From Escherichia coli (GTDB lineage Bacteria > Pseudomonadota > Gammaproteobacteria > Enterobacterales > Enterobacteriaceae): a stretch of DNA of 64,000 nucleotides. The stretch is taken from the NCBI RefSeq assembly GCF_050320075.1, contig NZ_CP190018.1. One strand, 5' to 3'. Positions 51,001-54,000 of the stretch are shown here, in pieces (the first letter of the stretch is position 1; each line of letters begins with the position of its first letter). The position numbers were made by a program.

Positions 51001-54000
51001 GCACCCGGTGATACCGGGTACAGCGGGGTGATCAGCAGCCTGGGTGACAGGACAGCGGCCGCCCCGGTGTGGTGGGTGGTGGTGCATAAACTCTCCAAAG
51101 GTGTGACGCAGGCTGCTGTGGCGTCCATTCCCTGCCGGCCGGATATACGGCAACTGCGTTTTGAGGTGCAGCGGACATTCATTGCGAACCGGGCGCTGGC
51201 CGACGAGCTGCAGGACTTCACCAACGACTGTTACTCGCTGGCGCTGTATCAGTGGAAGCAGCGTGACCAGGGGATGACGAAGGACAGGAAGCTGCTTTCG
51301 GATATCAGCTGGATTGGCAGCAGTACGTTCATGCAGGGTGACTACGGGACACTGCAGTCGAAAATGCCACGTGCGGCATTCCCGTGGAATAGCGCCCGTG
51401 ACAGCGGCCGTCCGGATACGGGACGGGGGGGTTATCCCACATGCCGTGAATGGTGGAGTGACAGTAGTGTCGGGCTGAAGAAGCGGGTGACAGAGGAAGT
51501 TGATGAAGGACTGTGGTTACGTATTTCGGCGGCAATGAAAATGCTGGGGAACGCGCAGGCGAACTACCAGGAGGAAATCATCAAACGTCTGGTGAGTCCG
51601 GCGAACCTGACCCTGTCACAGGGGGGTGAGGTGTACCGTGGCTATGGCGGTAATGCAGATATGACGGCGGCGAATGCGGTCACGCGTGCAGCAGGCACGG
51701 CGGGTTCTGCCGTTGCTAGTCTGGCAGCGTTTCCGGCGTTTGATGCGATGCGGCAGGCGCTGCCGATGGTGCAGAGTATTCTGCTGATGGCGGTGTATAT
51801 CATGCTCCCGTTGATTCTGGCGTTTGCGGCGTATGAATTCAGCACGCTGATCACACTGACGTTTGTGGTGTTTGCACTGAATTTCCTGACGTTCTGGTGG
51901 GAGCTGGCGCGGTGGCTTGACAGCTGGATGCTGACGGCCTTGTACAGTTCGGACACGCATTCCCGTGTGAACATGATGGGGCTGCAGAACACGTCGGACG
52001 ATATCATCATGAATTTTGTGATGGGCACGATGTTTATTGTATTGCCAGCAATGTGGCTGGGGGCGTTGACATGGGCCGGAATTAATATCGGGGATGGGAT
52101 TAACCGAGGTATTTCGAATGGCGTAAATCAAGCCCAAGAAGCTGGCTCTAAAGGTGCAAATTTATTGAAAAAATAAATAGTATGCAGGAGAAATCTACTT
52201 AAGAGGGTATTTCTCCTGCTAATTTTACAACTTATATTCTGTATCGCCAGTCACTATATAATCACCGTCAATACGAGTTTCAAGTTTTGGGCATGAATAA
52301 GAGCCAATTACCTTGATTAATCTATTTTGGATTTGGTCTGAGGTTGAGTTCTGAACTGTATCAGGTTCAGGTAAAGCCGAGAAAACCGCGCAAGCAGCTT
52401 TTTTCAGCAGAGAGCTGAAAGTCCATGGGGTATCAGATGTTTTGCAACTCCACATTGCTTTTTCTGTTTCATTGTTCATCGCGTGCCTCCTGTAAGTGGA
52501 TAATCATCCTGGTACTATCATACGTGTTGTATGATAAATGTTCAATGCTTGAAAATCCAGGTGTAATTGTTTGATTTTACTCTTCTTGCTGTACAGCCTG
52601 TGATGTGGGCCAGGACGTGACACTGCATGTCACAATAGCTCCAGGAACTTCAGCCTCAGTCCTGCTGAACATTGTGTGATTAATTTTTAAAAATGCGAAA
52701 AGAATAATCTCTCTTTTTAGTCGTCCGGCTATGCCTTAATTCTCCCTGAATCAAACCCTGTATCAGGAGAAGCTGAATGAAAATATCAAAACTGGTTGTT
52801 GTGGCTACAGTATGTTCCACGCTTAGTGCATGTTCCGTGGAAGAGATGGCTGCTGTGAACAAGAAAATCAGTGACGGTGCATTTGCTGTGACGAAAGCGC
52901 TCAATGGGGGAACGGGCTACGCGGATAATGGTATGCCGATCCTTAACAAGCAATTGCCGCCGGAGCAGGATAAACGCGAAAATGTTATTGATGTCCCTGT
53001 TGATGTGGATACCGCAGCAGGCCGACTGAAACGCTATTACAAGTTTTACTCGAATGATGAGGTAAATGCGATCCGCAATAACGGCACAACTGACGGAAAA
53101 TGGCAGGCAAGTGCGATTATTGACAATGGGCATATCTGGGATGCGATGCCGGGCAGTTACTACAAAATGGGAGGAAACTGGCGTAAAGGCAGCTTTGATG
53201 ATCACCTGACGATTGAGGTGGAAAAGAACGGTAAGGGAAGCCGGGTCTATATCACCTATGCTTCAGCTTCTCAGGCGCATTTGCAGGCAAGTTCTCTTGA
53301 GCCTCTGTTTAAGCGAGTGAAGGATGTGGCTGAAGGAAAGGTTCGTTGATGAGCACGCCACGGGCAAGCCCTTATGGCTAAAGGAGAGGGAGATTGCCCG
53401 TGGCGGCCCACTTTTTTTAATCATTTTTTTACCATGTTGTCCAGTATTTTTACATAAGTGAAACATCTGGTGTTGTTTTCTGTTCATCGTGCTGGAAGTT
53501 ACAGGGCTTGTAATTGAACGGGGAGAGATGTAATTTACGTGCGCAAAAATTTTACTCAAGGGGGAGAAAACCGATGAAACCGAATATCCATCCTGAATAC
53601 CGTACTGTGGTGTTCCACGATACCAGTATCGATGAGTACTATAAAATTGGTTCGACCATCAAGACTGAACGTGTGATTGAGCTTGATGGTGTCACCTATC
53701 CGTACGTAACAATTGATGTTTCCTCTAAGTCGCATCCTTTCTACACTGGCAAACTGAGAACTGTTGCTTCAGAAGGTAACGTGGCGCGCTTTAACCAGCG
53801 TTTCGGTCGTTTTGTTGACACCAAAAAAGGCGCATGAGCAGAAATCGATCACAGGCGCGATTGATATGGAAAGGTATTGCATGAGTGTCTGAGGTCGGTT
53901 ATTTTACGTTTCACAAGAAAGAAGCACTTAAACAGAAACTCACAGTCCATATTCCTTCATCCCCGGTTACGGGGATTTTTTTTAGCTGTTGTCTGGGGAG

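Follow-up and report, generated by a model that had tools for sequence, protein, structure and literature searches.

The 64-kb stretch of E. coli DNA analysed here (hereafter the window) carries on its plus strand a gene for a type-B, cysteine-free ribosomal protein L31 (L31B), preceded by a candidate promoter and a strong Shine-Dalgarno sequence and lying between two terminator-like hairpins, downstream of a predicted lipoprotein gene of the integrative conjugative element (ICE) in which the whole arrangement resides (Table 1). The product, which is identical to the protein named WP_000803993.1 in RefSeq, reaches 121.6 bits with the NCBIfam profile NF002462 (type B 50S ribosomal protein L31), for which the cutoff is 86, and 87 bits with Pfam PF01197 (cutoff 27), and with no cysteine among its 87 residues it lacks the CxxC zinc-binding motif. 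It shares 81 of 87 amino acids with K-12 YkgM (93%), and the two genes are identical at 216 of 264 nucleotides (82%), third codon positions accounting for 42 of the 48 differences. Residues I19, Y23, E32, V34, N74 and D82 mark the ICE protein off from native YkgM. The initial annotation had described an 87-aa paralog nearly identical to YkgM and devoid of the CxxC motif, and the protein identity, the missing cysteines and the NF002462 score above cutoff all bear this description out. Among solved structures the nearest chain is bL31B in the E. coli ribosome entry 6i7v, with 64 of 68 modelled residues identical, a likeness which points to possible incorporation of the ICE-encoded protein into the 50S subunit instead of L31A. 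The start codon is an ATG, 7 nt after a Shine-Dalgarno sequence that is shared with a urease-linked L31B copy described below and is absent from native ykgM.

Table 1. Features of the L31B locus and of the element carrying it, in window coordinates.
Feature	Position	Strand	Basis or remark
3' two-thirds of tRNA-Phe(GAA) with its native terminator, joined to ICE sequence replacing the 5' third	12532-12605	-	
STAXI RNA motif	27365-27518	+	139 bits
190-aa predicted lipoprotein gene of the ICE, lipobox LSAC	52777-53349	+	upstream neighbour, outside the L31B unit
Hairpin GCCACGGGCAAG...TTGCCCGTGGC, 12-bp stem, then T-run	53357-53418	+	RNA fold, terminator scan, direct reading
Candidate -35, TTGTAA	53508-53513	+	position of the native ykgM -35 (alignment, promoter comparison, profile)
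Candidate -10, TAATTT, 17 nt after the -35	53531-53536	+	alignment, promoter comparison, profile; native TATCTT
Segment in place of the native Zur operator (GTTATGTTATAACATAAC)	53537-53565	+	unrelated, non-palindromic; matrix and consensus scans, promoter comparison
Shine-Dalgarno sequence AAGGGGGAG	53558-53566	+	direct reading
Type-B (cysteine-free) ribosomal protein L31 gene, 87 aa	53574-53837	+	ORF call, profiles, alignment
Intrinsic-terminator-like hairpin ATCCCCGGTTACGGGGAT, then T8	53959-53984	+	terminator scan; ~120 nt past the L31B stop codon
STAXI RNA motif	55910-56069	+	89 bits
EFASI motif	56547-56669	+	70.7 bits
STAXI RNA motif	58707-58860	+	138 bits

The lipoprotein gene upstream has homologues in 9 of 80 related ICEs, and the hairpin which follows it, partly conserved in an alignment with the urease-linked homologue, would insulate L31B against read-through from the tra operon. 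Given the LSAC lipobox on one side and the hairpin with its T-run on the other, the earlier statement that the gene has a lipoprotein gene and a terminator as its neighbours is upheld. In some ICE copies (L009, L012 and L015, positions 6313-9541) genes for a GmrSD-like nuclease, an EcoRI-methylase-like protein and CcdAB have been inserted as one block about 40 nt past the L31B stop codon, which makes the 3' side of L31B a hot spot of cargo insertion. A further terminator-type hairpin at 54538-54608 of the window (+) gave a sub-threshold match to the SorX sRNA (28.6 bits against a gathering score of 46.6), which is probably fortuitous and brought about by the terminator structure.

That the gene is carried in a mobile island, as was claimed initially, is confirmed by the ICE core genes, by a tRNA-Phe remnant and by a constant gene order. 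Over the stretches compared (1-12000 and 48000-64000) the window is 100% identical to NZ_CP123240.1, from the chicken strain YZLc1-3, and the offset in coordinates between the two sequences fits an IS66-family insertion that is annotated there and absent from the window. In the RefSeq annotation of NZ_CP123240.1 the identical DNA comprises the kps capsule locus followed by an ICE with ParA, SPI-7-type DnaB and ParB, replication proteins of the STY4528/STY4534 type, TopB and Ssb, TIGR037xx ICE core genes, TraD and a conjugative ATPase; TraU-like and TraG_N genes precede the lipoprotein and L31B genes, and past L31B lie an integrase-domain protein, ArdA and, further on, a relaxase and an integrase. 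L31B itself occupies a variable region, bounded by the mating-pair genes on one side and by a block of STAXI motifs, the integrase-domain gene and ardA on the other.

The truncated tRNA-Phe is the attachment remnant of ICE integration beside kps, and is consistent with pheV and pheU, which the cited literature gives as insertion hot spots of ICEEc2. The same bases are labelled 'tRNA-Ser' in RefSeq NZ_CP123240.1, and are rejected as a tRNA by both ARAGORN and Rfam. The family core genes and a tRNA attachment site, by which cargo of a pKLC102/PAGI-2/SPI-7-type ICE is recognised, are thus both present, and the host element is an ICEEc2-like ICE of this family inserted in tRNA-Phe beside kps. The STAXI and EFASI motifs lie upstream of ssb-region, integrase-domain and hypothetical ICE genes, the second STAXI being located about 2 kb downstream of L31B in a region that is also conserved beside the urease-linked L31B copy. 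In the ICE of YZLc1-3, mcr-1.1 flanked by ISApl1 is found next to traF (NZ_CP123240.1 925958-930611, outside the window).

In a sensitive blastn survey covering 5426 complete E. coli genomes, the ICE allele was detected in 35 (33 at 100% identity and 2 at 97.7%), 25 of which are poultry isolates or come from poultry meat, and an allele about 82% identical, annotated ykgM/ykgO, in 5039. All 35 genomes with the ICE allele have at least two ykgM-like places, and in strain MS15052, where the native operon was inspected, native ykgM (WP_000803998.1) and ykgO are intact at 372,826-373,229, between ykgR and ykgL/ecpR, with the ICE allele at 3,348,294, 3 Mb away. The search for a native locus that had been proposed initially therefore confirms that ICE L31B is an additional copy. 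In the assembly collection ~6700 blocks list exactly this protein, which UniRef labels as Enterobacteriaceae-wide (n = 14), and the order TraU-TraG_N-lipoprotein-L31B is constant in the 10 of 10 inspected places that encode it. The ICE allele was not found on plasmids; plasmid matches at 92-93% were native-type ykgM, mostly in very large records or mislabelled chromosomes, and were set aside. In one assembly (GCA_027274645.1, a single 5.8-Mb contig; L009 and L010) the ICE region is present twice, and both copies encode the identical L31B protein.

Related ICE loci were compared from other species of Enterobacterales, with TraG_N proteins 45-76% identical, and none of the 80 has L31B within 7 kb of TraG_N. 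The host element thus has the family core genes and the tRNA-Phe integration site in common with ICEEc2 and the pKLC102-PAGI-2/SPI-7 ICEs, but differs from them in its L31B cargo. Since none of the 80 relatives has it near TraG_N, L31B does not belong to the conserved backbone of the ICE family; it is accessory, lineage-specific cargo and is not needed for ICE function.

The partner gene is missing. In the ykgM-ykgO operon, ykgO lies directly downstream with overlapping stop and start codons, an arrangement that is not found at the ICE gene, and tblastn with YkgO and canonical L36 queries detected no ykgO/L36-like sequence in the whole 64-kb window (best E-value 0.08, at an unrelated place), which extends the initial remark that no ykgO-like ORF follows the gene. 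The native K-12 locus matches the window by blastn at 53567-53837 only, that is, over the coding sequence and 7 nt, homology ending exactly at the L31B stop codon. A presumed ykgO remnant (TGATGAGAGT...TCTTAAC) after the L31B gene of a second ICE variant scored no better than shuffled sequence and was dropped. An L31B gene standing alone, without a linked L36B gene, is also known from Bacillus subtilis, in which ytiA is a monocistronic Zur-regulated gene; ytiA, unlike the ICE gene, is chromosomal and Zur-repressed.

According to textbook accounts, zinc-free ribosomal paralogues belong to the Zur regulon and are produced only once zinc is exhausted. Zur reference sites were taken from the znuA-znuC intergenic region, zinT, pliG and ykgM of a K-12-derived genome, and were examined by counting mismatches to the 23-nt sequence GAAATGTTATAWTATAACATTTC, which we take to be the Zur consensus, and by a weight matrix. 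The sites of znuA/C, pliG, zinT and native ykgM have 2-7 mismatches to the consensus, compared with 12 of 23 in the best match upstream of ICE L31B. The matrix, which was built on four E. coli operators only and could give low scores to non-canonical or very weak sites, scores its own four sites at 25-30, and found no Zur box in the 400 nt upstream of ICE L31B (best score about -1 to 1.6) and a maximum of 10.8 anywhere in the 64-kb window. The weight-matrix scan suggested by the initial annotation therefore agrees, as does the mismatch count, with its observation that no clear palindromic Zur box is present upstream. A Zur box overlapping the promoter, which is a trait of the Zur regulon, is accordingly lacking at ICE L31B.

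Comparison of native ykgM promoters from four taxa, namely E. coli (K-12 and O157), E. marmotae, E. albertii and an enterobacterium of another, more distant genus, revealed a conserved layout of GTTG(A/T)AA, a 17-nt spacer and TAT(C/T)(T/C)T, followed directly by the palindrome GTTATGTTATAACAT(A)AC. The native -35 is TTGAAA in E. coli and TTGTAA, as in the window, in E. albertii. The candidate -10 of the ICE gene is weak, with 3 of 6 matches to TATAAT, and the two hexamers together match the sigma-70 consensus at 7 of 12 positions, versus 9 of 12 for K-12 ykgM; a profile derived from the native promoters only nevertheless ranks the window site TTGTAA-N17-TAATTT second of 127,940 positions. A generic sigma-70 scan of 52600-54400 returned no promoter-like site, and for this reason the promoter call rests on homology to the native ykgM promoters. 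After the candidate -10, at the position of the operator, stands ACGTGCGCAAAAATTTTACTCAAGGGGGAGAAAACCG, which is non-palindromic and ends in the strong Shine-Dalgarno sequence.

Because native-like hexamers have been kept and the operator segment has been replaced, the core promoter looks inherited from native ykgM and the operator specifically lost. The initial picture of the upstream region is thus correct as to the absence of the Zur box, but the region is not simply foreign, since it resembles the -35/-10 core of native ykgM and only the operator segment is replaced. Compared with the Zur-regulated E. coli operon ykgM-ykgO (bL31B + bL36B), the ICE gene encodes a member of the same protein family behind the same type of core promoter (TTGWAA-N17-TAxxTT), but has neither the Zur operator nor ykgO, and is distinguished by its strong Shine-Dalgarno sequence, its own terminators and its location in an ICE. 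An L31 r-protein leader or riboswitch was not detected by Rfam searches at gathering thresholds over the whole window and at permissive thresholds over 52000-56500, which yielded the STAXI/EFASI motifs and chance matches only, and outside the terminator hairpin the 5' region of L31B folds with no unusual stability (z = -0.8).

The orphan state of L31B is real, as initially described, but orphan mobile L31B is not rare in E. coli. A variant adjoining a urease gene cluster (ureE/F/G) and a hok/gef-like gene (P0130; L099, 5001-5264) is present in at least 576 of the 5426 complete genomes (~11%), which makes it far commoner than the ICE allele with its 35, and its hosts include STEC/EPEC-type strains, e.g., H19 and E110019. 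It shares with the window allele the residues I19, V34 and D82, the upstream region including the Shine-Dalgarno sequence, the absence of ykgO and the STAXI-containing region ~2 kb downstream, and differs from it in its GTG start, its urease neighbours and a nucleotide identity of 82%; it is a sister lineage of the window allele. Its promoter segment is identical to the native one at 24 of 34 positions (hand count), and a strong Zur box is missing from the promoter, the scores being 7.7 close to it and 14.6 ~250 nt upstream.

Another orphan L31B (P0133; L103, 4969-5264), which no more than 5 complete E. coli genomes contain, comes just after TraG_N in a second variant of the ICE, belonging to the same family. 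In contrast to the window allele, it lies between TraG_N and the 190-aa lipoprotein gene, i.e., before the latter, and keeps a native-like promoter with its Zur box (score 22.5); an IS2-like fragment follows downstream. With the box kept in this variant and lost in the urease-linked one, the two bracket the state of the window allele. Orphan L31B without an operator thus recurs in the mobile DNA of E. coli.

Between ICE L31B and the native gene dN/dS is ~0.02, measured at a synonymous divergence that is near saturation (pS is 0.59-0.65 when the native genes of E. coli, E. marmotae and E. albertii are taken for comparison), and two ICE variants of the gene differ by 6 synonymous and 0 nonsynonymous changes. 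ICE L31B is under purifying selection and is not decaying. The native genes of the three species are about equally distant from it at synonymous sites, none standing out as donor. The mobile L31B lineages retain 90-95% protein identity to native Escherichia YkgM, and their synonymous divergence, from one another as well as from the natives, equals that between different genera. The genes may have been captured long ago from lineages not yet sampled, silent change may be faster on mobile DNA, or the need to fit the E. coli ribosome may have constrained the protein.

Taken together, we consider it fairly probable that the gene represents a functional extra copy of bL31B/YkgM, carried as monocistronic ICE cargo and providing a Zur-independent supply of zinc-free L31. 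We favour a Zur-independent source because of the insulating hairpins, the inherited-looking promoter without an operator and the good ribosome-binding site, and the protein is probably made whatever the zinc supply. The gene would have descended from a chromosomal locus of the ykgM-ykgO type, apparently keeping the ancestral core promoter, losing ykgO and the Zur operator, which overlaps the transcription start in the native gene, and being furnished with a strong ribosome-binding site. Escape from Zur repression would then allow L31B to be made even at sufficient zinc. L31A and L31B compete for one subunit-bridge site, and L31A binds zinc. L31B from the ICE would thus contend with RpmE, the zinc-binding L31A, for the one place that the 50S subunit offers to L31, and the extra protein could lower the cellular and ribosomal demand for zinc, leaving the host pre-adapted, or quicker to adapt, to zinc-poor niches. 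Promoter activity, constitutive expression, ribosome incorporation and a fitness benefit are in each case predicted here from sequence comparison.

A different view is that the ICE copy is a spare ykgM that is still zinc-responsive or otherwise tightly regulated, whether through a non-canonical Zur site or through a regulator of the host or of the ICE. The core promoter is weak-looking, with its 7 of 12 consensus matches, the urease-linked relative has the borderline Zur-like site mentioned above (14.6, ~250 nt upstream), and the good Zur box kept by the second ICE variant means that Zur control can be maintained on such elements. Against this, matrix scores do not exceed 1.6 within 400 nt upstream and 10.8 window-wide, compared with 25-30 for true sites, the operator position holds non-palindromic sequence, and no r-protein leader or other Rfam element is present, and we regard continued regulation as unlikely.

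It can also be imagined that L31B serves the ICE itself, by remodelling ribosomes during transfer competence or on establishment in a new host, or by countering a factor, of the host or of a competitor, that acts on L31 or on the subunit bridge. A role of this kind would suit the position of the gene between the mating-pair genes and the STAXI/integrase-domain/ardA block, the defence-type cargo (GmrSD-like, methylase-like and CcdAB) directly downstream in some copies, and the retention of L31B on three different mobile lineages; it is made distinctly unlikely by the terminator-like hairpins, which insulate the gene from the neighbouring operons, and by its absence from 80 related ICEs. A neutral hitch-hiker, i.e., a captured fragment of the ykgM locus that is silent or decaying, might be suspected from the missing native operator and partner gene and from the few promoter consensus matches, but is largely excluded, and in our estimate very improbable, because of the evidence for selection (an intact ORF with dN/dS ~0.02 at near-saturated synonymous divergence, and all 6 of 6 differences between ICE variants synonymous), to which the strong Shine-Dalgarno sequence and the identical protein across thousands of assemblies may be added.

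In the literature searched (ykgM/L31 together with ICE or island) no analysis of the regulation, origin or function of mobile ykgM/L31B was found; in one report 'ykgM_2' is listed without comment in a genomic island common to FDN-4 and EC958 (PMC12054123, 2025). The protein was already annotated in RefSeq, and what is new is the native-like core promoter with its operator replaced, together with the strong ribosome-binding site.

An operator-less mobile copy that is under strong purifying selection suggests that the ICE with ICE L31B as its cargo brings an always-available, transferred substitute for a zinc-binding ribosomal protein. For inference of regulons this calls for caution, as the annotation 'ykgM' does not equal Zur control. 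If expressed, the mobile copies could bear on how pathogenic E. coli manages its zinc, how fit it is under nutritional immunity and how heterogeneous its ribosomes are. A more far-reaching proposal, which we put forward as speculative and unlikely, is that mobile elements of E. coli, namely the present ICE and the DNA with the urease-linked orphan, have repeatedly domesticated zinc-free L31, stripped it of its Zur operator and so constitutively reprogram the ribosomes of their hosts as a transferable trait; if true, this would amount to horizontally transferred ribosome remodelling, either improving survival under host-imposed zinc starvation or altering ribosome behaviour (subunit bridging, hibernation, drug tolerance).
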